Shown: positions 317 to 40,065, numbered from the stretch's first letter. The stretch: DNA of 40,495 nt from Caldisericaceae bacterium (GCA_049967855.1 JBMFRX010000013.1:1-40495); one strand, 5' to 3'. Numbers and translations: made by a program. The notes: generated from the letters alone by a model not told the origin.

Positions 317-2062
317 TTATTTCACAAAAAGAAATAGTAATAAGTCCCTTCCATCAATCCTATGGTTAAAATCAAGATCGCAAAACTCGTTGAATCCTTC
401 GTCCATATAATTCTTTCCAAATGATTTTATGATTGCTGCAAAATCATTTTCGTCAACAGAGCCATCGAAATTTACGTCTCTCTCTTCAAATCCCTTGCAA
501 GAAACAGGCAAAGAGGATTGCCAGGTTGAGGCTTTAACTTGTATTGAACCAACTACAAAACCTCGAATTTTGCCTTGAACTGAGACATCTCCTTGCACTC
601 CATTTAATCTTACAATTCCGAACTCATTGTCAATAATTGCTCCTGTTTGAGACACAGAATCGACATAGAAACTATGGCGCGGGAAAACAATAAATAGATC
701 TGATTTTGTATCAAAATTAAACTTTGCTTGAAATGTTTTATCAGAAGAGAAGGAAATTGGTATAAAAACATCTGGCACGGCGTTCTCTGATTCAATCTTA
801 CAAGAGAAATTAAGTTTCCACTTAACTGCAGGGTCACCGTATATGTTTAAATCGTATATATTCATAAGACTGCCCTCTGCAGGGTCTTCAATATCTTTGT
901 AGAGTAGATTCTTGAAATAATACTCAAATGAATCATACAACGACTTCCCAACAGAGCTTCCATTGCAAAGATTACGCGTGAAATAATAGTTAATACTTGA
1001 AGAACCGCCGTCATCTGGGGCTGTAAAATAAGAGGGAGTGAAGCTTATCTCAGTGGAGCCAATAAACACCGATGCCCCCTTTATGAGTATTGCCTTGCCC
1101 AAATTGTCATCTCCGTTCTCGTTGAGACAGCTTCCTGAGAACAAAATACCCGATGCTTTAAAATCATCTGTCTTGTTGATAAATTCTTTGAAGGTGTAAC
1201 CATCATCTGGCAATCCATTACCGTTCTTATCAATCCAGCTTTCACTGTATGCGGCGCCACTGCTGCCGTGGGCATCCCAGTCAACAAAAGCAGCATCGCC
1301 AATAGATGCAAGAAAATTGTTCTTAGTTAGAGGGAGAGTGCAGTCATACAGAGAAGGATAAGAACCATCCTTTTCAAAGAGAGTGGTTGTGTGAGAAGGA
1401 ATAACAGTCTTCAACAGCTGCATAAGTCGAGCTCCATCGCCATTAAAAATGTGAGCTCCATTGTAATCTTCCTGAGGAAATGAAATAAAAGACGCCGCAA
1501 GGACTGCTTTTTGGGAAGGATTCTTCTCAAACTCTACTGTATTCTCGAAAACTTCTTGTATCAGCAAGGGGTCGTCAAAGGGTATCCTTCCTACAATTAT
1601 CATTGGCTTAATCTGCATTGCATCACCATAAAGCTCTCCTGGGTAGCCGTCCTTATCTTTATCTATGTCTTCTCCAAGCAAAGCATAGTAAAGGTCAGTT
1701 TCGGTAGGAGATGGCACGCTTGTACTTGCATTATGCTGAGTATCTGATGGGTACATAAGAGGACGAGGAATAGTCTTCTCGCTGCCTACTATCAACAAGT
1801 AACCAGAGTTAAAATGCTTTGCAAGATATGCCCTTATGTCCTCTGCTTTTGAAGAGCCAATATCGTCTGTTGTGACTACTGAAACATTAAAGTCAGTTTT
1901 TCTGTATCGCGCAAAAAGCATAGCAGAATTCACAAGAGACGGGCTTGTCAAGATGATGTAGTTTTCAGAATGATTATAATTCGCATTTGCTGTATTTGTG
2001 CTCAGGAGAAGCGATATAACAAGAATAAAACAAACTACTCTCTGCTTCACTAAATTGCCCAT
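317..2062 (-). CDS. Secreted C25-family (gingipain-like) cysteine peptidase with C-terminal dockerin-like domain
   Basis: Signal peptide; YLLIVG, TDLYY, VGRIP motifs; His (DAHGS) and Cys (SGSCLN) dyad; NIYGDP end of the catalytic domain; C-terminal duplicated Ca-loop repeats DVNFDGSVDENDF...DLDFNHRIDGRDL. Confidence 0.8.
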   Translation of the reverse strand: MGNLVKQRVVCFILVISLLLSTNTANANYNHSENYIILTSPSLVNSAMLFARYRKTDFNVSVVTTDDIGSSKAEDIRAYLAKHFNSGYLLIVGSEKTIPRPLMYPSDTQHNASTSVPSPTETDLYYALLGEDIDKDKDGYPGELYGDAMQIKPMIIVGRIPFDDPLLIQEVFENTVEFEKNPSQKAVLAASFISFPQEDYNGAHIFNGDGARLMQLLKTVIPSHTTTLFEKDGSYPSLYDCTLPLTKNNFLASIGDAAFVDWDAHGSSGAAYSESWIDKNGNGLPDDGYTFKEFINKTDDFKASGILFSGSCLNENGDDNLGKAILIKGASVFIGSTEISFTPSYFTAPDDGGSSSINYYFTRNLCNGSSVGKSLYDSFEYYFKNLLYKDIEDPAEGSLMNIYDLNIYGDPAVKWKLNFSCKIESENAVPDVFIPISFSSDKTFQAKFNFDTKSDLFIVFPRHSFYVDSVSQTGAIIDNEFGIVRLNGVQGDVSVQGKIRGFVVGSIQVKASTWQSSLPVSCKGFEERDVNFDGSVDENDFAAIIKSFGKNYMDEGFNEFCDLDFNHRIDGRDLLLFLFVK

Positions 2063-6124: not shown

Positions 6125-7513
6125 TTAAGGAGCCATCGTTATTAGTCCGTATACTGTAATAGTGTCACCGTTATCAACTGCGGCATTATCAGGATAGGTA
6201 TCTGGATACTTCAAAATGTCGTCCACATTTATGTAATTCTTCCCGCCTTGCGTTATAACCTGTGGGTTTTCGTAAAGACACGGTGCCACCATCTCTTCAG
6301 GAAAACAGAGCTCTCCATTGATAATTGTTGCATATCTCTTACTTATTGTCCTTTCCCTTACAAGAGAGGCAAGAATATCTCCATATATCAAAACAGGAGC
6401 AAACTTTCTATTAACAGTTATTTCTCCGCAGCAGCCATAGATGTTGTCCCTATCAAATTTGCCGTTTAAAGTGAATGAAACAATCCCATTGGAGTCAGTT
6501 TTAAGGTCATAAGCGCCTATGGGCGTGTTACGCATTACTTTGCCATTTGCATCGGTTATCAGGAAATCAATTTTCTCATCCTTACCCTCAATGACAACAA
6601 TGCCTTTATCACCCTTATGATTTGGGAATATATCGCCTACTGTTGTTATAGGAGAAACAGGCTTTGCCTTGTAAAACACTTTGAAATCTTCTCCGAGAAT
6701 AGTGTCGGGATTATCTTTATCTTCAATTACATATTTTCCTGGCTCGTCAAAAGTAATCTTTTTTTCAAAGTAGTTGGCACAATCATCACAGGTGCCAGGT
6801 ACTGTTTTAACTTCAATTTTCTTTTCTGAAGGGAATATCACATAAAAAGCTTTTGTACTCTTTTGCACATAGCCTTTTATAACTGCAGTCTGGTTGACAT
6901 AGATTCCACAATAAGTAAACGCAGCTGCAGAACAGCATCGTATGACAGGAACATCGCTTACAAACTGCACAGGGAAAAACAGCTGGTCTTGAGAAATTTG
7001 AGGGTTCTCGCGTGTGAAATCACTATCCGAAAGCACAATATCCCTATTGACATCAAATGTTCCAATGAGAGAATATGGTCTTTTCATTGTTTCAAAATAG
7101 TTAATAAGCTGGATTTCGTGGACTCCTTTCTCAACAGAAACTGGCTTTCCAGTAAGCTTGCCCAGCCAATGCTTGTCCAAAACTATCATAAAATTTCCTG
7201 TGGTCTTAATCAGGACGCTGTACATTTCAGGGAGCTTTGCAAGAGCAAAAGATAGGGAAGTATTCTTGCCTATCTCAACGGTAAATTCTATTGTTTTAGA
7301 ATCATAACCTTCCATTGATAGGGTTACTTTATGCTTGCCCAAAGAAAGCTTATAATTGTCCAAAGGCGTTTTGCCCACTGAAACTCCGTCTATGCTGATA
7401 GATGCGCCCTCAGGAACTGAATCAATCGTTACGCTTCCTTCTTTCGCGGCGGGCTTGCACCCTGAAACAAGTAACAATAAAACCACCAATAATATTGCCA
7501 ATATCTTTTTCAC
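6125..7513 (-). CDS. PEGA-domain lipoprotein with Cys-rich C-terminal region
   Basis: Lipobox LVSG-C; PEGA domain (IDSVPEGASISIDGVSVGKTPL...GKHKVTLSMEGY); GTG start after GAGGCGG. Confidence 0.8.
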   Translation of the reverse strand: MKKILAILLVVLLLLVSGCKPAAKEGSVTIDSVPEGASISIDGVSVGKTPLDNYKLSLGKHKVTLSMEGYDSKTIEFTVEIGKNTSLSFALAKLPEMYSVLIKTTGNFMIVLDKHWLGKLTGKPVSVEKGVHEIQLINYFETMKRPYSLIGTFDVNRDIVLSDSDFTRENPQISQDQLFFPVQFVSDVPVIRCCSAAAFTYCGIYVNQTAVIKGYVQKSTKAFYVIFPSEKKIEVKTVPGTCDDCANYFEKKITFDEPGKYVIEDKDNPDTILGEDFKVFYKAKPVSPITTVGDIFPNHKGDKGIVVIEGKDEKIDFLITDANGKVMRNTPIGAYDLKTDSNGIVSFTLNGKFDRDNIYGCCGEITVNRKFAPVLIYGDILASLVRERTISKRYATIINGELCFPEEMVAPCLYENPQVITQGGKNYINVDDILKYPDTYPDNAAVDNGDTITVYGLITMAP

Positions 7514-14924: not shown

Positions 14925-16115
14925 ATGCCTCGGATAATACACACAGGTGACCTTCATCTTGGGTTTCCAACCTACAGAACAGAAATTAATTATGATTATT
15001 TTAAACCTTTTTCATCAGTTGTAGACTACGCAATAGAGAACAGAGTAGACCTGGTTGTAATTGCAGGAGACGTATTTGACAAGAGAGACCCTCAAACAAA
15101 CATACAAAGAGGTTTTGCAAGGGAACTGCGCAGGCTCACAAGAAATAATATCCCTGTGTTCATTATCACTGGAAACCATGAGGGTTCGCCAAATCCTGAG
15201 CGTAACATTCACCTTGACGTTTACAAAGAGCTTGAGATAGAAGGAGTGACAATTGCAAAGAAGATTTCGAACTACAAAATCGCCAACCTCAACATTGTGT
15301 CTTTACCTTACCCTTTTAAGCGCAATTTGATGCATCTTGATGATTACAGAGACAAAAATGAGTATGAAATTGCCGCAGAAATGAATAGCACGATGATTGA
15401 ACTACTTAACAACGCTTACAATTCACGCGATAAAAGCTTGCCAACGATATTCGTAGCACATATACCTGTGAATGAGGGACATATCGGAGATGAGATGTAC
15501 GGAAGTTTCGATATAGACCTGCCAATTTCAATAGAAGATATAGACAGAAGTGAGGTTTCTTATGTTGCCCTGGGACACTTCCACGACAGGCAAATAATGA
15601 GTTCAAAGAGATACGTCCACCCGTTTGTTTACTGTGGCTCTCTGGACAGGATTAGTTTTGGGGAAGAAAACTCAGTAAAGGGCTTCTTCGATGTCACAAT
15701 AGATGAAACAACACATAAGGCAAACTTTGTTTTCGTAGAGAATACAAGCGCAAGAGCATTCTACACGATAAGAATTGGGAAAGACAATGATTTTGAGTCC
15801 ATTGATATTGAACGCGCCAAAAAAAGCATAACTCGCATAATACTAACAAATGAAATTTCTGACGAAGACTCTCTGAGAAAGCTAATCGATGAAGTTGGCA
15901 AAATTGCCTACGTTTTTGCTGGCTTCGAGGATAGGCGTGTTACTTTGAACAACCCAAGGAAAGGAACATTTCCTATAGCAATTTCCCCGAAGGAAGCAAT
16001 AGAAAAATATCTTGAACTCAGGAATGATGATTATGTAATGGATCATAAAGACCAGATAATAAAAAAGGCCGAAAGTATACTTGGTGAGGTTGAAAGTGGA
16101 GATAGAGAAATTTAG
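14925..16115 (+). CDS. sbcD: SbcD/Mre11-family metallophosphoesterase nuclease
   Basis: HTGDLHLG, IAGDVFD, TGNHE, AHI, YVALGHFH, YCGSLDRISFGEE. Confidence 0.85.
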   Translation: MPRIIHTGDLHLGFPTYRTEINYDYFKPFSSVVDYAIENRVDLVVIAGDVFDKRDPQTNIQRGFARELRRLTRNNIPVFIITGNHEGSPNPERNIHLDVYKELEIEGVTIAKKISNYKIANLNIVSLPYPFKRNLMHLDDYRDKNEYEIAAEMNSTMIELLNNAYNSRDKSLPTIFVAHIPVNEGHIGDEMYGSFDIDLPISIEDIDRSEVSYVALGHFHDRQIMSSKRYVHPFVYCGSLDRISFGEENSVKGFFDVTIDETTHKANFVFVENTSARAFYTIRIGKDNDFESIDIERAKKSITRIILTNEISDEDSLRKLIDEVGKIAYVFAGFEDRRVTLNNPRKGTFPIAISPKEAIEKYLELRNDDYVMDHKDQIIKKAESILGEVESGDREI

Positions 16116-19050
16116 AAAGGGAATTGCAAGCATCACTACAGCACTTATTATTGGAGGAATTATTCTAAGCACGCTTGCTGTGACACCTTTTCTTCAAAAT
16201 GACCCCAACCCATCCTCAACAGTTATAAGGGCATATCTTAAAGAAATGGCTTTGAAATACAATATCCCGTCGGTAGTCCTTATGGGAATTGCTTACACAG
16301 AATCTGGATGGAGACAATTTGATTCAAGTGGTAATCCGATAATAAACTATAATTCCCAGACTTCTTTTGACATAGGCATAATGCAAATAAATAGTGTTGG
16401 CAGAAGCGATATTGATAAGCTCAAAACAGACATATTCTACAACATTGAAGTTGGCGCAAAGATTCTTGATGGGAAATGGAAAATCACTCCAGGCATAGGA
16501 GATAGGGATAGAAATGTACTTGAAAACTGGTACTATGCAATCTGGGCATACAACGGCTTTTCGTATACCAATCACCCATTGAACACAACTGGACGACACT
16601 ATCAAGATAAGGTAATAGATAACATAGGACGTTTTATACTCGGCAACGACGGGCAGCCTCTCTGGACCCCAACAACTATAACCAAACCAGATCCTGCAAC
16701 AATTGCCAACCCTCCACAGTGGATACCTACTCCCATACCCTACCACTATGGTGACCTTTACTCCAATTCAATGTCATCAGATAACGCACGCTTGCTTGCA
16801 GGACCATCAAACAGCGTTATAAAAACAAACAGAGATACTATGATTTCGTATTTGATGCAGAATGTTGGGACAACAGTCTGGAAAAAGAACAGTGGTACAT
16901 TTGCCAAACTCACCTTAACAAAAAATAATTCAGTTCTTGAATACACGTCAGCAGTTTCAAAAGATGTTGTCCAGGGAGAATCTTACCAATTCTCTTTTGT
17001 AATTAATGCCCCCTCTTCAGGAATATATTCAACCCAAATTTCAATGTACAATGGGACGTCAAGTTTTGGATCAAATGTTACAGGCACTATCGAATTGCTC
17101 GACGTTCAAGTAAGCGATGGAGCACAGTCATTTGATAACGGATTTGACATTGGACAAAGAGTGCCGTTGAAGTTCAACTTTAGTTTGCCCAGCCCACTGA
17201 ACAGCTTTGTCAAAATAACATTACAAGATAGTTACGGCAATACCACCTATGCTTCGCTTGTAAACACTGGCACAGTACAGCAAAACATTGACACTTCTTT
17301 CGTGCCATTGTCACAGTTGCTAATCCCTGGGTCATATACACTTAAAGAAGAATTAATATTTGTTGATGGACAATTCAATATTTCAGAAAATACCCCGTTC
17401 CCATCTTATTGCGATTTTGCAAAGCCTTTTATTATCAATAATATGTCGCAAACAGGAATTATGGTTGATTCGTCTCCTGAAGGAGCACACATTCTCATAA
17501 ATGGTGCGGACAGCGGATTTATAACCCCAGCATTCGTCAAAATCCCTCCAGCGTTATACAATGTAACGCTAACAAAAGATGGCTTCCTGAACCAACAGGT
17601 TAGCACAAACCTTGTATCTAACATAGGTTTTGTGTACTCTGCGCTTCAAGTTGATAGCTCAAATTTCAGTATGTCCCTTGTTCCAAACATTGTAAATCTT
17701 GCTCCTATCAACAGCGGGGATTCCTCATTTGCAACACTATCGGCTAATTTTGATGGAACAGTCTCTTCGCCTATCACGATAACTTCTGATTCAAAATGGT
17801 TATCAGTTTATCCATACAGCTTTAATACGGCAGCTGCAATAAATGTTTTTGTTGACTCCCGATGGGTAACGAACAGTGGAATCATTCAAGGAAAGCTCAC
17901 GTTCAGCAACAATTCCAAGTCATACACCGTTGCCATTACTGCTAATATTATAAATAGCAGTGCTCAAATCTACTTTCAACCTTCTCGTGCGACTCCTCGT
18001 GAAGGAGACACTCTTGCAATCGATGTCCACATAAGCTCTCCTAAGTATCCTCTTCAGAAAACGCATTTTGATGTCTCTTATGACCCATCATTCCTCTCAT
18101 ACATTGACTTTGCTCAAGACGAACAATATGCAGTCACTTCTGACAATACCGATGGAAGCATTGATTTTGATATAGCAAACCTCAACGGCCTTACAGGCGA
18201 TAGCAAGGTCATCTCGATTAATTTCAAGGCTTTAAAGCAAATAGGCAGCGGAACTCTCATAAAAATCCCAAATGCAACAGCAATATCTATGGACAACAAA
18301 CAAGTTTCCTTGCAAACAGGAACTTCAATTATTTCGATACTTCCAAAGCTCACATTGCCTTCGCAAGTTTCAGGACTTACAGCAGAACCTCTCATCGGGA
18401 AAATCCAGTTGAATTTTTCTCCCTCACAGCAAGGCAGTTATCCTATTAAAGAATATGAAATATATCGCTCAAAAGATGATTCTCTTGACAATGCTCTTTA
18501 CATTGGTAGCACCCAAAACAATTCGTTCATTGACAATGGCCCCCTCGAGAGAGTCCCTTATTTCTACTGGATATTGGCTGTAGATTCGTATAATAATTCG
18601 TCCATTCCTTCAGCATCGGTCGAGGCAATCCCCCTTGTATTTTCAGACTCACTACCAAAAAACGTCAAACTGGTCTTCGTAATTGGAAAACCATATGTTT
18701 ACATAAACGGCATTCAGATGCCAATGGAAGTGGCTCCATTCATCAAGGCAGGACGCACTTTTGTCCCTGTAAGATATGTTGCTCAACCCTTTGGGGCACA
18801 GGTTATCTGGAACAGCAAAACACAACAGGTGACATTAATCCACAAGAAAGTCATAGAACTCTGGATAAACAACTCCAAAGCCCTGGTTGATGGAATTGAA
18901 ACCCCCATTGATGCAGGAGATCCTACTATTGTGCCATTTATTCAAAGTGGTAGGACAATGCTTCCACTGAGATTTGTGGCTGAGAATTTCGGTTGTGATG
19001 TACAGTGGGATGCAAAAACACAAACAATTACAATAGATTATCAGAACTAG
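16096..19050 (+). CDS. Large exported multidomain protein: SLT lytic transglycosylase, Ig-like, PEGA, BACON-like, cohesin, FN3, copper-amine-oxidase-N ('stalk') domain
   Basis: N-terminal TM/signal; IAYTESG, GIMQIN, AIWAYNG (SLT); VDSSPEGAHILING (PEGA); SDSKWLSV (BACON-like); EGDTLAIDV...VSYDPSFL...INFKAL (cohesin); YEIYRS...YWILAVDSYNN (FN3); GRTFVPVRYVAQPFGAQVIW and GRTMLPLRFVAENFGCDVQWD (stalk). The GTG 16096 start is approximate. Confidence 0.8.
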   Translation: MEIEKFRKGIASITTALIIGGIILSTLAVTPFLQNDPNPSSTVIRAYLKEMALKYNIPSVVLMGIAYTESGWRQFDSSGNPIINYNSQTSFDIGIMQINSVGRSDIDKLKTDIFYNIEVGAKILDGKWKITPGIGDRDRNVLENWYYAIWAYNGFSYTNHPLNTTGRHYQDKVIDNIGRFILGNDGQPLWTPTTITKPDPATIANPPQWIPTPIPYHYGDLYSNSMSSDNARLLAGPSNSVIKTNRDTMISYLMQNVGTTVWKKNSGTFAKLTLTKNNSVLEYTSAVSKDVVQGESYQFSFVINAPSSGIYSTQISMYNGTSSFGSNVTGTIELLDVQVSDGAQSFDNGFDIGQRVPLKFNFSLPSPLNSFVKITLQDSYGNTTYASLVNTGTVQQNIDTSFVPLSQLLIPGSYTLKEELIFVDGQFNISENTPFPSYCDFAKPFIINNMSQTGIMVDSSPEGAHILINGADSGFITPAFVKIPPALYNVTLTKDGFLNQQVSTNLVSNIGFVYSALQVDSSNFSMSLVPNIVNLAPINSGDSSFATLSANFDGTVSSPITITSDSKWLSVYPYSFNTAAAINVFVDSRWVTNSGIIQGKLTFSNNSKSYTVAITANIINSSAQIYFQPSRATPREGDTLAIDVHISSPKYPLQKTHFDVSYDPSFLSYIDFAQDEQYAVTSDNTDGSIDFDIANLNGLTGDSKVISINFKALKQIGSGTLIKIPNATAISMDNKQVSLQTGTSIISILPKLTLPSQVSGLTAEPLIGKIQLNFSPSQQGSYPIKEYEIYRSKDDSLDNALYIGSTQNNSFIDNGPLERVPYFYWILAVDSYNNSSIPSASVEAIPLVFSDSLPKNVKLVFVIGKPYVYINGIQMPMEVAPFIKAGRTFVPVRYVAQPFGAQVIWNSKTQQVTLIHKKVIELWINNSKALVDGIETPIDAGDPTIVPFIQSGRTMLPLRFVAENFGCDVQWDAKTQTITIDYQN

Positions 19051-22388: not shown

Positions 22389-23312
22389 ATGGACAAAAGC
22401 CAGGATGCTTCAAAGGAAGTTTACGAGTTTTTAGCAACAAATCAAATCTACCCGCAAATTAGCAGAAACGGAACGATAACGTTCAAAAGCCAAAATGGTG
22501 TTCAAATATCACAAGAGCAACAACTTGACCTTCTTCGAACTCTTAAAATAAGTACTCCTGAGGAGTGCAAGAGAGTGAGGGATTACGTTAAAGAACTGCG
22601 TAAGCAGGTGAAATCACACGTACCCATAAAAGACTGGGTAAAGGAGGAACGCCCAAGGGAGTTGCTTGTAAAGAATGGAAGCCAAAATCTGACACTTGCA
22701 AAACTCCTTGCAATAATACTGCGCACAGGAAGCGTTGGGAAAAGCGCAGAGGAACTTGCTAGAAACATCCTGGATGAATTCAAAACATTGCGAAATCTTG
22801 ACTCTGCAACGATAGATGAGATATGCAAAATTCAAGGCATTGGTATTGCCAAGGCAGCCCAGATTAAGGCAGCGTTCGAAATAGGAAAACGTCTTATGCA
22901 TGAGCAAGCCGAATCCACTAAGAAAATTCGGAGTCCAAGGGAAGCATTGCAGTATGTATCTGAGTACTTCGCACCATATTTGAGAGATGCAAAGAACGAA
23001 TTTTTCTTTATCGTTCTGCTTGATATAAAGAACAAACCCATCAAACACGTTGAGATAAGCAAAGGAAGCATAAATGCAAGTATTGTTGACCCAAAGGAGG
23101 TGGTAAAGGAAGCAAGTCTGAGCTCTGCTTCATCAGTCATCCTTCTCCATAACCATCCATCGGGAGAGACCGAGCCCTCTGAAGAAGATTTAAAAATCAC
23201 TTCCCAGATTGTAAAAGCATTGGAACTTGTGAATGTAAAGGTACTTGACCACATAATTCTTGGTAAGAACCACGATGATTTTTTCAGCTTTGCAAATGCA
23301 GGAATTCTTTAA
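22389..23312 (+). CDS. radC: RadC (JAB-domain) protein with ~78-aa N-terminal extension
   Basis: IKDWVKEERPRELL, LLAIILRTG, HhH motif IQGIGIAKA, HNHPSGETEPSEED, LDHIILG. Confidence 0.9.
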   Translation: MDKSQDASKEVYEFLATNQIYPQISRNGTITFKSQNGVQISQEQQLDLLRTLKISTPEECKRVRDYVKELRKQVKSHVPIKDWVKEERPRELLVKNGSQNLTLAKLLAIILRTGSVGKSAEELARNILDEFKTLRNLDSATIDEICKIQGIGIAKAAQIKAAFEIGKRLMHEQAESTKKIRSPREALQYVSEYFAPYLRDAKNEFFFIVLLDIKNKPIKHVEISKGSINASIVDPKEVVKEASLSSASSVILLHNHPSGETEPSEEDLKITSQIVKALELVNVKVLDHIILGKNHDDFFSFANAGIL

Positions 23313-23464: not shown

Positions 23465-25066
23465 ATGCATACTTTCAATAGGTCGAACAGAAAAGTAATT
23501 ATTGAAACATTATGCCTAATTGCGGTTATCGCAATAGCAATTGCGATACGTTCTTACATTATGTTTGGCACTTCGCTTATTCCAGGAATGAATGGAGGTT
23601 ACTACCTCGTCCAAACAAGAAGCATAATCGAAAAGGGGCACCTTGGCGAGCATGATATGCCACTTCTATTTTTGCTTCAAGCTGGTTTTGCACTTGTCAT
23701 TAAGTTCTTATCAAATATGAATCTTGAATCCTCTATCTTCCTGTCCGTGAAAATCTTCGACAGTGTAATTCCTGCTCTTTCTGCAATCCCTGCGTATCTT
23801 GTGACAAAATACCTTAATAAAGATAAAAACTATATTCTGCCGATTATTGCATCAGCAGCAGTTGTGACAATTTCATATGGTCCGCTCAGGATGCTTGGCG
23901 ATTTCCAAAAGAATGCTCTCGGAATGATGTGGTTCCTTTTTATGGCGTATTTCCTCATTAAAGCACTCTCGGTGAATTCAAAGCGAGACCTTATCTTATC
24001 ATTAATTTTTCTTGTTCTGTGCGGGCTAACGCACATTGGGGCATTTGGAGTTGCATTGGTTTTTATCGTGCTCGCAGCTTTAACTTCGATGGTATTTATT
24101 TCAAGAATTTCAAAGCGCAGTTTAACAGCGTTCAGCCTTACAGTAATCGGAATTTTAGCTTTACTTGCCCTGTTGAAGATTAGCTCAGACTCAATAAGGA
24201 TATCGAGATTAATCTCCTATATTGAAGCGCCGCTTTCCTTATTCCAATTCTCAAATGCAAAAGGTATGTTTAGAGCAGAAAGTATCCAGAACACAATTAT
24301 GTTTGGGCTTATATCGGTTATAATGATTTTGATGCTCGCCTGGCAGAGACGCTCGTTCAAGAAGTGGGAATATGTAGTAATTATACCTTCTGTTGTTATG
24401 ACGCTTTTTCTTATTTCTCCTTTTGTTAGCCAGGATTTCTCCACGCGTTCCCAAATAATGGCTTTTGCTCCAGGAATGATTGCCCTCGCCTTCTTTTTCA
24501 GGCACAGCAACAATTTATTCAAGTGGGCTGTTGCAACCTTAGTCGTAATTGCTTTAATTGCAGGGCTTCCTTCAATTTTGGTTACGGCGAGCACTCCATC
24601 AATATCTGCTGCCTCTTACTATGAGCTCACAACTCTTCAAAGTTCTATTACTGAGCCAAGTGAGACATTAGTAATAGCACGTCACGGACTAGAATGGTGG
24701 GTGGCCTGGGCACTGCACACAAACGTTGCTCAAGCAAACGCTGTTACATCAAATGATTGGAACGATTACAAGAATGTATTGTATATTCAGGAAATTTCTG
24801 AGGGAAATGGATTGGGCAATCAACCACTTCAATTGCAACAGCCTCCTTTTGGGAATATTGTGTCCTTTGCCCCTGACCAAAATAAAGCACCACAACCTCC
24901 AAACCAGATGCCTCAAAACAATCAACCTCAAAATGGAACATTACCGCAAGGCCCATTTTCCAATACAGTGATTGCAAGCTCTGATGAAATTACTCTCTTT
25001 AAGGGGAATTATTTTATCCTCTACAAGTTGCCTACTGCAATCACACTGCCAGGTGGCAACAAATAG
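23465..25066 (+). CDS. Polytopic membrane protein, GT-C/PMT-like topology, with Pro/Gln-rich C-terminal segment
   Basis: TM1, then loop PGMNGGYYLVQ...DMPL, 10 or more TM helices incl. GLTHIG, and a soluble C-terminal domain; resembles GT-C glycosyltransferase architecture (inference). Confidence 0.55.
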   Translation: MHTFNRSNRKVIIETLCLIAVIAIAIAIRSYIMFGTSLIPGMNGGYYLVQTRSIIEKGHLGEHDMPLLFLLQAGFALVIKFLSNMNLESSIFLSVKIFDSVIPALSAIPAYLVTKYLNKDKNYILPIIASAAVVTISYGPLRMLGDFQKNALGMMWFLFMAYFLIKALSVNSKRDLILSLIFLVLCGLTHIGAFGVALVFIVLAALTSMVFISRISKRSLTAFSLTVIGILALLALLKISSDSIRISRLISYIEAPLSLFQFSNAKGMFRAESIQNTIMFGLISVIMILMLAWQRRSFKKWEYVVIIPSVVMTLFLISPFVSQDFSTRSQIMAFAPGMIALAFFFRHSNNLFKWAVATLVVIALIAGLPSILVTASTPSISAASYYELTTLQSSITEPSETLVIARHGLEWWVAWALHTNVAQANAVTSNDWNDYKNVLYIQEISEGNGLGNQPLQLQQPPFGNIVSFAPDQNKAPQPPNQMPQNNQPQNGTLPQGPFSNTVIASSDEITLFKGNYFILYKLPTAITLPGGNK

Positions 25067-25428
25067 AAATAAGAACTTGAGTCATTAAAAGGGGGGCTCG
25101 CAAACAATCACTTTAGATCTAAACTATGCAATCATCCAACACTTGAGAATCCAGTTATGCAAAAAATTGACAAAAATGCTTAACTATCCTTATAGGATTA
25201 ACAGAATATCTGAGCATATAATGACGAAAGCTTTGGGAACAGGCGAAATTTCAGTTAGGAAGAGCAAACCCCCTTCAAAATTTGACTACAAAAGTATTAA
25301 AAGGAAGAAAAATATTCCATTTGAGTCTTGCAGAGACAAAAGCATTTTTAAATTATTTGTAATTTGTTTAAACATCTGTATAATTCAAAAAACAATGTTG
25401 AATTCTGTTGAAAAGGGAGAGACTAAAT

Positions 25429-27288
25429 ATGCCAGAAAAGAGTGTTATTGTTATTGGAGCAGGTCTTAGCGGGCTTGCAACTGCAGCGCTTCTTTCAAAG
25501 AGAGGTTTTAAGGTTACGGTTATCGACAAGAACTACCAGCCCGGTGGCTCTTCAGGTGCATTTAAGAGAAATGGCAATATCTTTGACGTCGGTTCCGCAA
25601 TGATGTTTGGATTCGGTGAAAGTGGATTCAACCCTCACACTTTCCTTTTTAACGAAATAGAAGAATCCATAGAAGTAATTCCGCATAAAGCGATGTACAG
25701 GCTCCATTACAAGGGAGAAATAATAACCTTTTGGAACGACTTTGATAGCTTTTTTAGAGAACTTGAAAGACTTTTTCCACAGGAAATTGGAAACATAAAG
25801 AGGTTTTACTCATATATTGACGACCTCTACACGAATGTTGTGATGAAAGACCCTTCTCTTATTGCCCCATCGGAGATACCAAGAGATGAACTTTCTAAGA
25901 GATTTAGAGAAGACCCATTAACTCAACTGAGGACTTTGCCTCTTCTTTTCAAGAATTCTTCGTCAATTTTGAAAAAATTCACCAAGTCGAAAGAAGTCAT
26001 TCAGTTCTTTAACAAAATAACCTCCACCTACAGTTACACCAATATGGACGAGACCCCTGCAATTATGGCAGTAACAATGTTCATGGAAAATCACAAAAGC
26101 AGCAGCTTTTACATCTATGGCTCTACTCAGGTTTACGTAGGGAAACTTGAGAAAGCGATAGAGAAGAACGGAGGAAAGATATTATACAGCAAAGAAGTAA
26201 CATTCCTAAACATAAACGATGGGGTTGTTACCGAAGCGGTCCTTGACACTGGAGAAAAATTGGTTGCCGATTACTACGTCTTCAGCGGAACTCTTTATAA
26301 TCTTTACTCACACCTGCTTCCTGATGACAAAATACCGAAGAAGATTAAGGAGAGATTTATGAAATTTAAGAGGACCCAAGCAAGCATTGTTTTATATGCT
26401 GTCGTAGACAAGAGAGTTTTCCCTGTCGATACACAACCAATAGAGATGCTTACAGAAAACCCAGTGGATATTGATGAATCTGAGATAACTCTTTACATAA
26501 CTACCATCGATGACCCTTATTTAAACGTGGAAGGTAAACACAATGTTATCGCAATAGGACCCTCTTTCAGAAATTGGCCTTCGCCAAAAGACGATTCATA
26601 CAAAGACCCAAAACTAAAGAAAGCCTACGAAAAGATGAAAGAGGAAGAGGCGCAAAGAATAATAAATTACATTGATTCACACTTTCCTGGCTTTAAAGAT
26701 GCAGTTTCATATTACGAAATAGGGACTCCTACAACGATAGAAAGATATACTCTGAAAAATTTCGGGTCTGTCGCAGGCCCAAAACAGATGATTGGACAAG
26801 AACTTCTTAAGCGCCCTCACGCAACGACTTTCCTTGATAACCTTTTTATGTGCGGCGAATCTACCGTAATGGGGACAGGGACTCCTGCAGTAGTGATTTC
26901 GGGAATTAGTGCCGCAGACGTCATACTGAGAAAAGAACATATGGATGAATATCGTTATGCTACCAACAAGGAATTTGTAAAAAGGATTGAAAAAGTTGCA
27001 GAGCCTTATCCAAGAACAAACTTGCAGAAACTTGCAGACCTTTGTCAATGGTGCGAAAACGACACTTGTAGGACTGCTTGCCCTTATGAAGTGGATGTTA
27101 GGGGAATTCTGAGAAGACTCTATGTGGAAAACGTCTATGGTGCCAAAAAACTTCTTAAATCAGACGAGGAAGGAACGCTTACGTGCCTCAAATGTGCAAA
27201 ACAGTGTGAGTCTTCTTGTCAAAGGAAAGTTATTCTTAACGAATCCGTACCTATACAGACTATTCTAAAAAACTTGAGCGAAACGTAA
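25429..27288 (+). CDS. Phytoene desaturase/CrtH(CrtISO)-family FAD oxidoreductase fused to a C-terminal 8-Cys Fe-S domain
   Basis: VIGAGLSGL, GGSSGAFKRNGNIFDVGSAMMFGFG, GTPTTIERY, NLFMCGESTVMGTGTPAVVISG; tail CQWCx4Cx3CP...CLKCx3CESSC. Confidence 0.85.
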   Translation: MPEKSVIVIGAGLSGLATAALLSKRGFKVTVIDKNYQPGGSSGAFKRNGNIFDVGSAMMFGFGESGFNPHTFLFNEIEESIEVIPHKAMYRLHYKGEIITFWNDFDSFFRELERLFPQEIGNIKRFYSYIDDLYTNVVMKDPSLIAPSEIPRDELSKRFREDPLTQLRTLPLLFKNSSSILKKFTKSKEVIQFFNKITSTYSYTNMDETPAIMAVTMFMENHKSSSFYIYGSTQVYVGKLEKAIEKNGGKILYSKEVTFLNINDGVVTEAVLDTGEKLVADYYVFSGTLYNLYSHLLPDDKIPKKIKERFMKFKRTQASIVLYAVVDKRVFPVDTQPIEMLTENPVDIDESEITLYITTIDDPYLNVEGKHNVIAIGPSFRNWPSPKDDSYKDPKLKKAYEKMKEEEAQRIINYIDSHFPGFKDAVSYYEIGTPTTIERYTLKNFGSVAGPKQMIGQELLKRPHATTFLDNLFMCGESTVMGTGTPAVVISGISAADVILRKEHMDEYRYATNKEFVKRIEKVAEPYPRTNLQKLADLCQWCENDTCRTACPYEVDVRGILRRLYVENVYGAKKLLKSDEEGTLTCLKCAKQCESSCQRKVILNESVPIQTILKNLSET

Positions 27289-27310
27289 AATAGAATAGAA
27301 CTACCTTTAT

Positions 27311-27345
27311 ATGCATGCCTTCTAGGAGTTGCATTTTATGTTTTT
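27311..27345 (+). terminator. Possible weak terminator after the Crt-like gene
   Basis: Imperfect stem ATGCA..CCT/AGG..TGCAT followed by a T-rich tract. Confidence 0.3.
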
Positions 27346-27655
27346 ATGAAAATGTTTAGAAAATGAGTTCTTCCTGGAAAAATAGTGGAGAGTTGTATTT
27401 GAATTGTTGCGAAAATCTTTTTGTCTCTTTCCTAAAGACGTTAATGGCTGTAGAGGACTGTGGATAGGAAATTCCACTATATAGAGCTTGAACAAACAAG
27501 GGACCTATAAAAATTAAAGATTTCGCATTATTACAACGTCTGAAATTTTTTTCGCGATAATTTATTTTGCGATGAGACTTTCAAGAATTTTAGAATTGAC
27601 TTCTGTTCAAAAACCTATTTCACATAAAATCGCTTTAATAAGAAGCCTTTAACTT

Positions 27656-28774
27656 TTAAAATAGCCTTATATTCTTCCTTCTGATAGCTCTTCCTTTCCA
27701 GGTTGACTTTCCTGTTATCACCAAGAATACGGAAGCAAAACCTATGATTGAATTGACAAGAGATACCAATGGGTAATAGAGAGGCAACTCTCTTGGAAGC
27801 TTAAATTTAATTGAAGCTATAAGCCATATCAAAAGCGTTTCGAAAATCGAGGCAGCCGCAAGGAATTTCACAATAGGAGGATTTCTAAATACAAGTGCAA
27901 AAATAGGAGCAAATGATATAACAAGCATCCAAATCCAAACAAAAAGAGAAGGAATTAACCTGAGTTCAAATAACGGAAAATAGCTTTTCGATAGACCTAT
28001 AAAAGCTTCTCTGAAACTCTTATACATTCTGCAACCAACCAATTCAGAAAGGTTGAATATACCAACCCTCAAGTTGCTCTTCCTTGCAACCTTTGAGAGT
28101 TCGATATCCTCCACAATAGCCCCTTTAACACCCTTATGCCCTTGGATTTTCTCGTAAGACTTCCTCTTGAACATCATGAACTGACCGTTTGCAAACATAA
28201 AAAAGTAGAAATATCTTGACAGAAAACTTAGAAAAATAGGAAACATCGATAGGATGCTGAAATTCAGGAAAGGAACAGTAACCTTCTCTCCAAAACTTAT
28301 AGTATCTTCCCTCGGTATTCCGGTTATAAAGTCAAGATTTTTGGATTGCATTTCATCAACCATAATAGATACTGCATTGCCTGCAAAATAAGTATCTGCA
28401 TCTGCAAAAATAAGAATATCTCCAGTCGAGTGAAGATAAAGCCTGTAGCAAGCCCAGTTCTTTCCAGTCCATCCTTCTGGTGGCTCTTCTTTGCCATCAA
28501 TCATAATCAGGCGTCTGTCTTTAATAGATTTGATTATTTCAGATGTTCTGTCAGACGAATTGTCATCTAACACAACTATCTCGATATTCTCATAATCTTG
28601 TGATAGCAATGAATTTATACACTTTTCAATCGTCCCTTCTTCGTTTCTTGCAGGAACAAGAACAGAAACCCTAATTTCCTGAAAGCAGCTTCTTTTTATT
28701 GGCTTCTTGACAATAATAGCATTGAGAAGGGTGTTGAAGAATTGATACACAATGAATATAAACACTCCGTTCAT
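27656..28774 (-). CDS. Membrane-bound GT2 glycosyltransferase (CrtQ/CruC/HpnB-like)
   Basis: VLVPARNEE, LDDNSSDRT, PEGWTGKNWAC, FADAD, ANGQF, IVEDIEL, CRMY, C-terminal TMs and TWKGR. Confidence 0.88.
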   Translation of the reverse strand: MNGVFIFIVYQFFNTLLNAIIVKKPIKRSCFQEIRVSVLVPARNEEGTIEKCINSLLSQDYENIEIVVLDDNSSDRTSEIIKSIKDRRLIMIDGKEEPPEGWTGKNWACYRLYLHSTGDILIFADADTYFAGNAVSIMVDEMQSKNLDFITGIPREDTISFGEKVTVPFLNFSILSMFPIFLSFLSRYFYFFMFANGQFMMFKRKSYEKIQGHKGVKGAIVEDIELSKVARKSNLRVGIFNLSELVGCRMYKSFREAFIGLSKSYFPLFELRLIPSLFVWIWMLVISFAPIFALVFRNPPIVKFLAAASIFETLLIWLIASIKFKLPRELPLYYPLVSLVNSIIGFASVFLVITGKSTWKGRAIRRKNIRLF

Positions 28775-29350
28775 CTATAAGGTTCCCCTGTACTGCCCGA
28801 AGATTAATAAAATAGCATTTAGAATTGCAATAGTTGTGAACCTTATGTCAGCGAACCTGATGGCAACGAAAAACACAAGTAATGCTGACGAGATAACAAC
28901 AATCATCCTGTCATTAATCTTTTTCCCATAAATTCTTTTAAGCAAAGCAAAAATGACAAATGTTCCGCCCAAGAAGGTTGGCACTTCCCAGAGAGTAAGC
29001 GCACTCCAAACCCCAAATGTTGTTGTAATGCCCTTTCCTCCTTTGAACTTAAGAAAAGGAGTGAATATGTGTCCCAGTATTGGCGCAATTGAAATAACAA
29101 CGAAAGGAAAGAAATGAAGTTCGTTTCTGGTAATAATAAGATAAAGCGGCATTACTCCCTTAAGATAGTCAAGAACAAGAGAAGGCACACCTAATTTGAG
29201 GCCGTTTGCCCTAAAACTGTTTGCTGGGCCAGGATTGTTATCATTTCCAAAGTCTCTTATGTCTAAATTGAATAGGATTTTGCCAACCAAATATGAAAAT
29301 GGGATTGACCCAGCGAAAAAAGTGACAGAAAGCAAAATAAAGAATCTCAT
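28775..29350 (-). CDS. PlsY-like (acyl-phosphate-dependent acyltransferase family) protein, divergent
   Basis: GSIPFS, DIRDFG..NPG..N..R, DYLKG, LGHIF.PFLKFKGGKG; lacks C-terminal HxxN motif 3. Confidence 0.85.
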   Translation of the reverse strand: MRFFILLSVTFFAGSIPFSYLVGKILFNLDIRDFGNDNNPGPANSFRANGLKLGVPSLVLDYLKGVMPLYLIITRNELHFFPFVVISIAPILGHIFTPFLKFKGGKGITTTFGVWSALTLWEVPTFLGGTFVIFALLKRIYGKKINDRMIVVISSALLVFFVAIRFADIRFTTIAILNAILLIFGQYRGTL

Positions 29351-29452
29351 TTTTTATCCTATTTATCTTTATTATAAGTTAGTTTAGATAAATTTCCAAG
29401 AAGTAGCTATTTTTGTTATTTTTTTTGAAGAGAAATTTTTTTAAACCATTCA

Positions 29453-38837: not shown

Positions 38838-38865
38838 ATTATACGATTAAACTGCAATCCGTCAA
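38838..38865 (-). promoter_or_regulatory. Sigma70 promoter for tRNA-Leu
   Basis: Minus strand TTGACG-16 nt-TATAAT, 14 nt before the mature tRNA 5' end. Confidence 0.65.
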
Positions 38866-39494
38866 GAGCGCCTTAAGAGCTTCTTTAAATATTTCTCGTA
38901 CGAAGCTTTCCATTCTTTGCGCAAAGAGCTTAGCCCAAATAGTTCTTCAACAATTGTGAACAATAAAACAGCCAAGAAAAAATAAAGGCTATTTGAAAAT
39001 AAATAGATTAGAAATGCAAAAATCGGAAGTATCACCGCAAGCGATACAACCTGTGAGTGAGTTATTAAAAGAAGCAAAATCCAAATGGCGACTAATACTG
39101 CAAGCAAGATTAGAGCTTCGCTAAAAGGAAAAGATGCAAAAACGACAAACAGGAAAACTCCTGCTGTAGTTGCAGCCCCCTTGCCTCCTCTGAACCCAAG
39201 AAAAGGAGAGTAAACATGCCCAAGCACTGCGCAAAAGCCAATTACGGTAAGTACGGCTGGGGAGAACTTGTACAGATAATATGGCAAAACCAGCGCAACA
39301 ACTCCCTTGAGCAAGTCGCCAGCCAATGCAACAAATCCAGCCTTAATACTGACTAGATGAAAAACGTTCCCCGCACCTGGGTTCTTGCTCCCATAATCCC
39401 TTATGTCAATATGCTTTGAAACTCTACCCACTATGTAGGCAAAAGGAATAGAACCCATAAAAAATGCAAATAAGGCACTTAACGCATATTTCAT
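38862..39494 (-). CDS. Second PlsY-like acyltransferase family protein, divergent
   Basis: GSIPFA, DIRDYGSKNPGAGNV, DLLKG, LGHVYSPFLGFRGGKGAAT; no HxxN motif 3. Confidence 0.85.
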   Translation of the reverse strand: MKYALSALFAFFMGSIPFAYIVGRVSKHIDIRDYGSKNPGAGNVFHLVSIKAGFVALAGDLLKGVVALVLPYYLYKFSPAVLTVIGFCAVLGHVYSPFLGFRGGKGAATTAGVFLFVVFASFPFSEALILLAVLVAIWILLLLITHSQVVSLAVILPIFAFLIYLFSNSLYFFLAVLLFTIVEELFGLSSLRKEWKASYEKYLKKLLRRS

Positions 39495-39531: not shown

Positions 39532-40065
39532 ATGGATGAGAAAGAACTGATTAGACGTCTGAAAAGAGGAGATGCTTCCGCGCAAGAGGCATTCATAAGA
39601 AAATATCAAGACCTGATTTATGGTGCCATATTTCAAATTGCCAGGGACGCCGATCTTTCAAAAGACGTACTACAGGAGGTTTTCATAAAGGCATTAAAAA
39701 ATATTAACAAATTCAATGAGAATGCAGAAATATCGACCTGGCTTTACAGAATTGCGATGAATACCCTGAATGATGAGCTAAGGCAACTTAACAAGGTGCA
39801 TCCTCTAACGGACGATTTGCCACAAACAGTTGATTCTCCAATTTATTCATTTGATGAGAAAAAGAAAATCATATTCGAGGGAATGGGGAAACTTGACGAG
39901 AATTACAGAGAAATACTTTCACTTGTTGATATTCAGGGGCTAAGCTATGAAGAGGCTTCCACGCTGATTGGAGTGCCGATTGGCACAGTACGTTCGAGGC
40001 TTGCTAGAGCGAGAGAAAAATTGAGGGATATAATCCTTGAAAGCAACTTTTTCGATAAAATTTAA
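39532..40065 (+). CDS. ECF RNA polymerase sigma factor
   Basis: Region 2 DVLQEVFIKA...STWLYRIAMN; region 4 GLSYEEASTLIGVPIGTVRSRLARAR. Confidence 0.93.
   Translation: MDEKELIRRLKRGDASAQEAFIRKYQDLIYGAIFQIARDADLSKDVLQEVFIKALKNINKFNENAEISTWLYRIAMNTLNDELRQLNKVHPLTDDLPQTVDSPIYSFDEKKKIIFEGMGKLDENYREILSLVDIQGLSYEEASTLIGVPIGTVRSRLARAREKLRDIILESNFFDKI

Follow-up and report, generated by a model that had tools for sequence, protein, structure and literature searches.

A non-canonical PlsY-fold protein coupled to a CruC-type glycosyltransferase, beside an iron-sulphur-fused Crt-family flavoprotein, in a Caldisericaceae genome in which no phytoene synthase was found

The 40,495-nucleotide stretch of Caldisericaceae bacterium DNA analysed here (GCA_049967855.1, JBMFRX010000013.1:1-40495; hereafter the window) corresponds to contig C13 in a genome of 1.30 Mb, whose completeness is rated at 99.99%. 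The host is probably an anaerobe of the Caldisericota, the plsY-like product having its closest named match in a 'Caldisericaceae bacterium'. An earlier note on this DNA had singled out three adjacent genes, one on the plus strand and two coupled on the minus strand, as a possible module for tailoring a lipid or isoprenoid, and the open reading frame (ORF) calls find all three genes intact and just where it had placed them. The plus-strand gene (25429..27288) encodes a flavoprotein of 619 amino acids counted from its ATG, which we call Crt-Fer4; the ORF caller starts at TTG 25408, and domain positions are given in the 626-residue numbering. The minus strand carries a gene for a family 2 glycosyltransferase (GT2; 27656..28774, 372 amino acids) and a plsY-like gene (28775..29350, 191 amino acids), whose product we call PlsY* and whose stop codon directly abuts the GT2 ATG, with zero gap. 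The plsY*-GT2 pair and the flavoprotein gene are convergent and 367 bp apart, an orientation that rules out a single three-gene operon. Sigma70-like sites, each with 10 of 12 consensus matches, lie 5′ of the flavoprotein gene (25357..25384, plus strand) and 5′ of plsY*-GT2 (29371..29399, minus strand), the number of such sites in the region being at chance level overall (14, versus 11.1 ± 3.1 in shuffles). The well-supported novelty is PlsY*; taken together, the genes are a genuine, if loosely put together, part of a synthase-less system linked to light and oxidants.

PlsY is the glycerol-3-phosphate (G3P) acyltransferase of phospholipid synthesis. PlsY* matches PF02660 and scores 102.8 bits against TIGR00023, below the cutoff of 137.2; its structural model has a predicted local distance difference test score (pLDDT) of 96 and fits 5XJ6 with a template-modelling (TM) score of 0.85 and a root-mean-square deviation of 2.1 Å. 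The active-site residues described in PMC5700162 for the Aquifex aeolicus enzyme (5XJ5-5XJ9) were mapped onto it through alignments. The two proteins share, besides the fold, Asn37 (N39 in the window), Arg45 (R47), His92 (H94) and the GGKG loop with Lys104 (G104-G105-K106-G107), whereas PlsY* has D37 for Ser35, V151 for Ser142, Q186 for His177 and G189 for Asn180, the last being Asp or Glu in most relatives. A one-residue insertion in the window protein leaves N36 and D37 as candidates for the Ser35 equivalent; relatives that do not have this insertion show Asp there without ambiguity. According to PMC5700162, Ser35, Arg45, Lys104 and Asn180 clamp the phosphate of G3P, Asn37 is the oxyanion residue, and N180D causes a loss of more than 95% of PlsY activity. 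The loss presumably comes from repulsion of the G3P phosphate.

A profile built from 26 close relatives and applied with a threshold of E ≤ 1e-45 found PlsY* in 19 of 301 genomes of Chloroflexota (the phylum of G051), 16 of 301 of Bacillota (the phylum of G049) and 21 of 93 of the host's own phylum. Of the 65 PlsY* loci, 64 have Asp at position 35 and one has Glu, a count that is partly built in because the search profile itself carries Asp. Asn180 is found in none of the 65 (Asp in 24, Glu in 18); Asn37 is kept in 60, Lys104 in 58, and His92, which we take to have a role in acyl-phosphate binding, in 64. Ordinary PlsY matches (n = 20) have Ser35 in all 20 cases and Asn180 in 19. Given the effect of N180D, acidic residues at position 180 argue against G3P and would suit a neutral sugar as acceptor, so that we regard PlsY* as a predicted sugar O-acyltransferase. 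The earlier description of this protein as a non-canonical PlsY, an acyltransferase of a different fold, thus holds, with the family score below cutoff and the clamp residues Ser35 and Asn180 replaced. Only one of the six PF02660 genes of the genome (L002-L007), at C2:108709-109329, keeps Ser35, His177 and Asn180 together; this copy with an intact pocket and the residues of PlsY* rule out that PlsY* is the housekeeping PlsY. Another copy, which follows a gpsA-like gene (C5:75132-75743), is atypical too. So is a further PlsY in the window (38862-39494, minus strand), which keeps Ser35, is without His177 and Asn180, and is divergent from an ECF sigma factor gene (39532-40065, plus strand); its orthologue in G002 (L176) is likewise divergent from a sigma-factor-like gene and lies directly 5′ of GT2-plsY*.

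The GT2 carries all four motifs that had been reported for it (GWTGKNWAC, ANGQF, EDIEL and CRMY), and it falls below the cutoffs of the HpnB (119.6 bits, cutoff 379.25) and CruG models (100.6 bits, cutoff 600). In our GT2 tree (a quick tree only, as is that of PlsY) a CrtQ side and a CruC side are separated with 100% support each, the CrtQ reference being the GT2 of the Staphylococcus pasteuri crt cluster, assigned as CrtQ from its position. On the CruC side the window enzyme groups with those of the Thermus and Deinococcus crt clusters, and it shares 33% identity with the Thermus enzyme over 62% of the length. Since the deepest split of the tree separates it from the staphylococcal CrtQ-type enzyme, its identification as CrtQ is ruled out, and of the proposed CrtQ/CruC likeness only the CruC half survives. 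Six PlsY*-linked GT2s from other loci fall on the CrtQ side. We predict from these comparisons that the window GT2 is a membrane enzyme of the CruC clade, O-glucosylating a hydroxylated polyene or isoprenoid.

The association of the two minus-strand genes is not peculiar to the window. A GT2 of the same family lies within 1.5 kb at 54 of the 65 PlsY* loci, in three phyla (22 of 24 loci in Chloroflexota, 12 of 16 in Bacillota, 20 of 25 in the own phylum), and the loci beyond the own phylum, 34 of 40 of which have the GT2, were not selected for this pairing. PlsY* genomes have a phytoene/squalene synthase match in 14 of 19 cases in Chloroflexota, and in 0 of 16 in Bacillota and 0 of 12 in the own phylum. 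In 8 of the 14 crtB-bearing Chloroflexota genomes PlsY* is within 5 kb of crtB. The order at one such locus (L253, with plsY* at 6612-7301) is Rieske-crtB-crtI-P450-lycopene cyclase-plsY*-GT2-MFS-photolyase-hydrolase; by clustering, L254 and L257 have this core in common, and L260 has the genes reordered, with a CarH-like regulator in addition. At L252 and L258, from Chloroflexota genomes in which no synthase was found, two GT2 genes in tandem follow plsY* (L252 has a third close by), and in G244, which has crtB, heliorhodopsin is directly 5′ of plsY*-GT2.

Esterification of carotenoid glycosides is known from two acyltransferase families, that of CrtO and that of the PlsC-like CruD. The Thermus cluster follows the plan crtB-phr-...-cyclase-PlsC-type acyltransferase-GT, and in three Chloroflexota loci PlsY* occupies the slot held there by CruD. 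The acyltransferase and glycosyltransferase of Thermus HB27 were named CruD and CruC (PMC4021367; the strains used here were matched by gene position), and PMC13704108, in whose main text the word PlsY does not occur, showed that E. coli with Chloroflexus CruC and CruD produces carotenoid glucoside esters. The window pair resembles this pathway, as found in Chlorobaculum tepidum, Chloroflexus aurantiacus and Thermus (PMC13704108, PMC4021367), in that a CruC-clade GT2 with the common motifs GWxGKxWAC, NGQ, ED and RMY is coupled to an acyltransferase gene, and the Chloroflexota pair stands at the equivalent place in a crtB-P450-cyclase-photolyase cluster. It differs in that its acyltransferase has the PlsY fold (PF02660), whereas the Thermus and Deinococcus partners are annotated as lysophospholipid acyltransferase family, in its predicted donor, an acyl-phosphate, and in that neither crtB nor cruF was found in the own genome. 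That CruD of Thermus might itself be PlsY-like was ruled out by the same annotation of the gene before the Thermus GT; a search with the window PlsY* against Thermus plasmids gave no match. The lost clamp, the adjoining GT2, the proximity of crtB and the filled CruD slot make it likely that PlsY* adds a third fold to the acyltransferases of carotenoid-glycoside esters, standing in for CruD or CrtO. We are fairly confident that the pair makes an acyl-glycoside. As to its acceptor, the suggestion of a non-carotenoid or scavenged substrate has to be shifted: because PlsY*-GT2 sits in complete crtB-crtI-P450-crtY clusters of Chloroflexota, the acceptor is tied closer to carotenoid-like chemistry, while the absence of a synthase stands. 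In the Caldisericaceae host we lean slightly towards a carotenoid, apocarotenoid or retinoid.

The third protein, Crt-Fer4, is a CrtH/CrtD-like oxidoreductase using flavin adenine dinucleotide (FAD; residues ∼1-510), fused to an eight-cysteine 2x[4Fe-4S] domain of the NfnB/GltD/DPD type. Pfam finds Amino_oxidase at residues 20-507 and Fer4_20 at 525-621 (37 bits, cutoff 25.8), the N-terminal GxGxxG being G10-x-G12-x-x-G15 by an alignment of 33 homologues. The best NCBIfam model is carotenoid isomerase TIGR02730, at 246.5 bits (cutoff 586.9), and the desaturase model for CrtI/CrtN/CrtP, TIGR02734, gives 137.3 bits (cutoff 238.1); a CrtH-like flavoprotein fused to an iron-sulphur (Fe-S) domain, as the earlier note had it, is confirmed. 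An AlphaFold model (pLDDT 87) has 4REP, a gamma-carotenoid desaturase, as best fold match (TM 0.79 by target), and the top matches 4REP, 3KA7 and 4DGK all have the CrtD/CrtI fold. All eight cysteines (Cys539, 542, 547, 551, 586, 589, 593 and 597) align with the Fe-S domain of 4YLF_B, and cluster binding is predicted. Their first motif is present in 119 of 119 homologues and the second in 105, with at least eight C-terminal cysteines kept in 106. Thus, Crt-Fer4 shares with CrtH/CRTISO the best-scoring model and the CrtI/CrtD fold, but it is far below the cutoff, has the C-terminal 2x[4Fe-4S] domain and occurs in anaerobes without a poly-cis desaturation pathway.

Crt-Fer4 belongs to a large family of 610-650-residue proteins of anaerobes, found at 451 places in the genome collection; cultured carriers include Parasporobacterium paucivorans, Acetobacterium wieringae and Trichococcus palustris. 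Three homologues of ∼960-1030 amino acids carry a full Fer4_20 plus Pyr_redox_2 reductase, i.e. the whole NAD(P)H-to-Fe-S module, and because these long forms add Pyr_redox_2 we infer that the window protein is a truncated form that would need an outside electron partner. CRTISO requires reduced FAD, and CrtI turns isomerase without oxygen (PMC3382138). Since CRTISO has this requirement, electron input would fit isomerisation or saturation, and we consider it reasonably probable that the Fe-S domain feeds electrons to FAD and that Crt-Fer4 isomerises or saturates double bonds, with no O2- or quinone-dependent desaturation. The opposite direction is possible, electrons being exported through the Fe-S domain for an oxygen-free desaturation. 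Crt-Fer4 may also resemble retinol saturase (RetSat), an enzyme of the 13,14-reduction of retinol. Long Crt-like proteins (∼960-1030 amino acids) fused to a full Fe-S and NAD(P)H-flavin reductase module were seen at L126, L127, L128 and L131; L127 has three such fusions in tandem and a fourth Crt-like gene, near FAD_binding_3 and ferredoxin-domain proteins. Crt-family flavoproteins of ∼690 amino acids occur at L010:339-2420 and L012-L015, several with an unannotated, hydrophobic-looking N-terminal extension of ∼210 residues.

Neighbours of Crt-Fer4 were counted at the best 80 of the 451 loci. Within 5 kb there are a second Crt-family flavoenzyme (Crt2) in 20, a GT2 in 19, CrtO in 16, a TspO-like gene (named from Atlas neighbours) in 15, UvsE in 9, a Rieske oxygenase in 7 and heliorhodopsin in 3. 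Crt-Fer4 elsewhere thus occurs in operons with Crt2, a CrtQ-clade GT2 and CrtO (PF18927), and synthase-less operons of this kind recur in several phyla. Two flavoenzymes, a CrtQ-clade GT2 and CrtO are also what these operons have in common with the staphyloxanthin set CrtM-CrtN-CrtP-CrtQ-CrtO, from which they differ in that CrtM was not found and the flavoenzymes, with scores of 137 and 79-94 against a crtI_fam cutoff of 238, are neither CrtN nor CrtP; in the own genome, the GT2 is CruC-type and a profile from 11 CrtO neighbours found no CrtO. Single loci have further genes: a tocopherol-cyclase-like gene (PF14249) near Crt-Fer4 in L044:14972-16039 and in L105, and a SOUL heme-binding gene inside the operon in L053. 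At 41 loci the flanks reach 3.5 kb or more in each direction; 23 of these have at least one such neighbour and 18 have none. The latter could be taken to mean that Crt-Fer4 reduces or isomerises external unsaturated fatty acids, driven by ferredoxin or NAD(P)H, the modified chains being handled by an acyl-phosphate-using PlsY*. That the long forms hold a complete NAD(P)H-to-Fe-S module would agree with this, as would a degV-like gene (by resemblance) before plsX in the own genome and a DegV near one plsY*-GT2 locus. However, the neighbours that recur are CrtO, CrtQ-type GT2, TspO-like, UvsE and heliorhodopsin, not fatty-acid kinase genes, and we think this explanation very improbable.

A chemistry on polyenes raises the question of their source. 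The earlier note had seen no phytoene or dehydrosqualene synthase in the window, and this extends to the whole genome, where PF00494 was not found (8 of 14 control genomes matched), and to most genomes carrying these genes: 27 of 29 Crt-Fer4 genomes gave no PF00494 match, these 29 being hand-picked from the 80 loci in favour of loci with GT2, and completeness being given for own-phylum genomes only. A CruF-type hydratase (PF04240) was not found in the own genome by a search that matched controls; crtC, crtZ and P450 were not searched for. A search for beta-carotene dioxygenase gave no match in the own genome, nor in any control. Since no phytoene/squalene synthase is detectable in the genome, the acceptor is probably scavenged. 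Crt-family oxidases without a synthase are described in Clostridia and Fusobacteria by PMC9907078, whose authors leave their function open; the likeness is that of Crt-family oxidases in anaerobes without a head-to-head synthase, the difference that PMC9907078 speaks of CrtN, a set to which Crt-Fer4 and Crt2 may or may not belong.

Partners that the earlier note overlooked are dispersed over the own genome: Crt2 with a short-chain dehydrogenase (SDR) and a SnoaL protein, a Rieske oxygenase, heliorhodopsin and photolyase. The Crt2 is 41-45% identical to the operon Crt2 set and lies with SnoaL/DUF2358 and SDR genes (C10:43919-46986, equal to L170:7920-10987), near rubrerythrin-like genes. The trio recurs in G644, G551, G494 and G295, and the SnoaL protein has a weak match to limonene-epoxide hydrolase (E 0.012). 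That Crt-Fer4 acts in a common process with the unlinked Crt2, SDR and SnoaL proteins seems to us moderately probable. The Rieske oxygenase, photolyase and PlsX are on other contigs, as is heliorhodopsin, which lies beside a hydrolase and a second PlsY*; that region (C2:6575-10308, L171) comprises heliorhodopsin, a small cytochrome b561-like protein, an alpha/beta hydrolase, a molybdopterin oxidoreductase and a solo PlsY*.

How, then, do the two convergent units relate? Counts in genomes suggest that they co-occur beyond chance, with kinship as a caveat. In the own phylum PlsY* is present in 7 of 10 Crt-Fer4 genomes (several of these genomes carrying the long, more distant form of Crt-Fer4), and in an evenly drawn Bacillota sample in 2 of 4 non-centre Crt-Fer4 genomes. 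In the same sample, where four candidates were scored per genome, heliorhodopsin is present in all four non-centre Crt-Fer4 genomes versus 14 of 296 others, and in the own phylum in 14 of 21 PlsY* genomes versus 10 of 72 others. Genes for heliorhodopsin, photolyase/UvsE and TspO-like proteins turn up repeatedly with each of the two units. A preprint reports carotenoid genes, photolyase and UvdE near some heliorhodopsins, and a full retinal pathway in only 1 of 381 heliorhodopsin-only genomes (bioRxiv 10.1101/2021.02.01.429150); 'acyltransferase', CrtO and TspO are absent from its main text, although its supplements may list them. The exact triple, among 16 metagenome loci, is found only in L120 and L121, which are 99.9% identical and hence one lineage; there, heliorhodopsin-Crt-Fer4 faces GT2-plsY*. 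A partial triple, Crt-Fer4 plus GT2, stands at a contig end in L122.

The explanation that we favour, tentatively and as something a little short of probable, is that GT2 and PlsY* acyl-glycosylate carotenoids or retinoids that are scavenged and then made ready by Crt-Fer4 and Crt2. Crt-Fer4 would first isomerise or reduce the scavenged acceptor, GT2 would then glycosylate a carotenoid-like or retinoid-like alcohol at its hydroxyl, and PlsY* would transfer to this sugar a fatty acid from acyl-phosphate, for which PlsX, present in the genome, is a possible supplier. The product would probably serve in protection from light and oxidants, or as a chromophore store, in anaerobes that meet light. 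The window set works like CruC/CruD, and by the tests made it is not a member of the CruC/CruD, staphyloxanthin, CrtH or housekeeping PlsY systems. Of the desaturase, glycosyltransferase and acyltransferase logic proposed at the outset, glycosylation followed by acylation is retained, and the flavoprotein is placed in a separate convergent unit; likewise the three genes are real, but they are not one operon, the exact triple being confined to close kin.

Several observations weigh against this explanation. A neighbourhood survey of homologues, the check that the earlier note had proposed, found PlsY* within 5 kb of Crt-Fer4 in 0 of 80 other genomes, which rules out the triple as a widely conserved cluster beyond kin, and the GT2s that accompany Crt-Fer4 elsewhere are CrtQ-type, a clade other than that of the window GT2. 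A 71%-identical Crt-Fer4 (L119) has no GT2 within 10 kb on either side, and a genome with a 65%-identical plsY*-GT2 pair (G022) is without a Crt-Fer4 orthologue, Crt2 and heliorhodopsin. Of the 16 Bacillota PlsY* genomes, 14 lack both Crt-Fer4 and heliorhodopsin, a synthase was found in none of these genomes, and those neighbours that were examined are not carotenoid genes. The window protein is nearer to synthase-less copies than to crt-cluster copies in the PlsY tree, where the PlsY* clade has 86% support by the Shimodaira-Hasegawa-like approximate likelihood ratio test (SH-aLRT). Heliorhodopsin is present in 12 of the 29 hand-picked Crt-Fer4 genomes and was not found in G686 and G687, both with a complete CrtO-type operon. 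The significance of co-occurrence by Fisher tests is overstated because kin are not independent. Finally, the activities of all three proteins are predicted, anatomy, folds, residues, neighbourhoods, the absence of a synthase and the presence of PlsX being what was observed.

Part of this would be explained if GT2-PlsY* were a general glycolipid cassette acting on home-made diacylglycerol, long-chain alcohol or polyprenol and yielding an acylated glycolipid, the flavoprotein belonging to the same stress regulon and to a separate pathway. In most of the Bacillota loci examined the pair has no carotenoid or light genes near it, it is present without Crt-Fer4 in G022 and in 14 of the 21 own-phylum PlsY* genomes, the two units are convergent with separate promoter-like sites, and PlsY* has both CruC-type and CrtQ-type GT2s as partners. 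On the other hand, the window GT2 has CruC-type carotenoid glucosyltransferases as its nearest named relatives in the tree, the pair lies within crt clusters, and in the own phylum PlsY* tracks heliorhodopsin and is found in most Crt-Fer4 genomes, as given above. We consider such a cassette unlikely, though the least so among the rival explanations. Frameshifts in plsY* of L120/L121 and in GT2 of L122, for which decay and assembly error are both possible, are a further point against acyl-glycosylation of scavenged carotenoids or retinoids, and together with the patchy distribution among kin they could indicate decaying leftovers of a lost carotenoid or light-response cluster. This is most improbable for the window, where all three genes are intact, given also the 451 places with Crt-Fer4 relatives, the conservation of their C-terminal cysteines and the recurrence of synthase-less operons in several phyla.

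A narrower proposal, which we hold to be improbable, is that synthase-less anaerobes salvage or synthesise retinoid for heliorhodopsin. Crt-Fer4, Crt2, SDR, SnoaL and sometimes the Rieske oxygenase would convert scavenged carotenoids or a home-made C20 prenol to an all-trans retinoid, GT2 plus CrtO or PlsY* would store it as acyl-glucoside, and the alpha/beta hydrolase next to heliorhodopsin would free it. The Rieske oxygenase is not a constant partner (1 of 4 Crt-Fer4 genomes tested), and for Crt2 the count is 4 of 4. The latter count, with the single polyprenyl synthase of the own genome, is also consistent with a different route, in which Crt-Fer4, Crt2, SDR, SnoaL and Rieske proteins turn a C15/C20 prenol of the cell's own making into a short conjugated polyene with no head-to-head synthase involved, the resulting retinoid-like chromophore or pigment being stored as an ester by the GT2 and the acyltransferase. 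In G295, where no synthase was found, SnoaL-SDR-Crt2 lies directly 5′ of plsY*-GT2 in a photolyase/heliorhodopsin cluster and so replaces crtB-crtI-P450-crtY upstream of the pair. Among the Chloroflexota PlsY* genomes, Crt-Fer4 is in 0 of 14 with crtB and 1 of 5 without. The co-occurrence of heliorhodopsin and the lack of a beta-carotene dioxygenase match, in the search that matched no control, point the same way. Such a chemistry has no precedent known to us, however, the best family match of Crt-Fer4 is an isomerase, not a desaturase, and 14 of 18 non-centre heliorhodopsin genomes of the Bacillota sample are without Crt-Fer4; the short-polyene route is in our view distinctly improbable.

If acyl-glycosylation of carotenoid-like acceptors by GT2 and PlsY* is true, PlsY* is a third, mechanistically different solution to esterification, with acyl-phosphate, and many annotations of an 'extra plsY' are wrong. 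In the literature, searched by titles and abstract openings with few subscription papers, neither a PlsY-fold carotenoid or sugar acyltransferase nor an Fe-S-fused CrtH-like enzyme was found described. The synthase-less versions give named genes for the open role of anaerobe carotenoid oxidases (PMC9907078) and for the retinal supply of heliorhodopsin bearers (bioRxiv 10.1101/2021.02.01.429150). Should retinoid salvage prove true, it would explain both the chromophore source and the role of the orphan carotenoid oxidases in anaerobes.

Other genes of the window may be mentioned. Directly 5′ of the flavoprotein gene, positions 23465-25066 (plus strand) encode a polytopic membrane protein of 533 amino acids with a Gln/Pro/Asn-rich tail, which has no Pfam or NCBIfam match and was not seen in the other loci searched. 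Upstream of it (22389-23312, plus strand) is a RadC/JAB-domain protein with an N-terminal extension of ∼80 amino acids. A protein with SLT, PEGA, cohesin and copper-amine-oxidase-N domains is encoded at 16081-19050 (plus strand), and a peptidase C25 with a dockerin domain lies on the same contig as this cohesin protein, at 317-2062 (minus strand).

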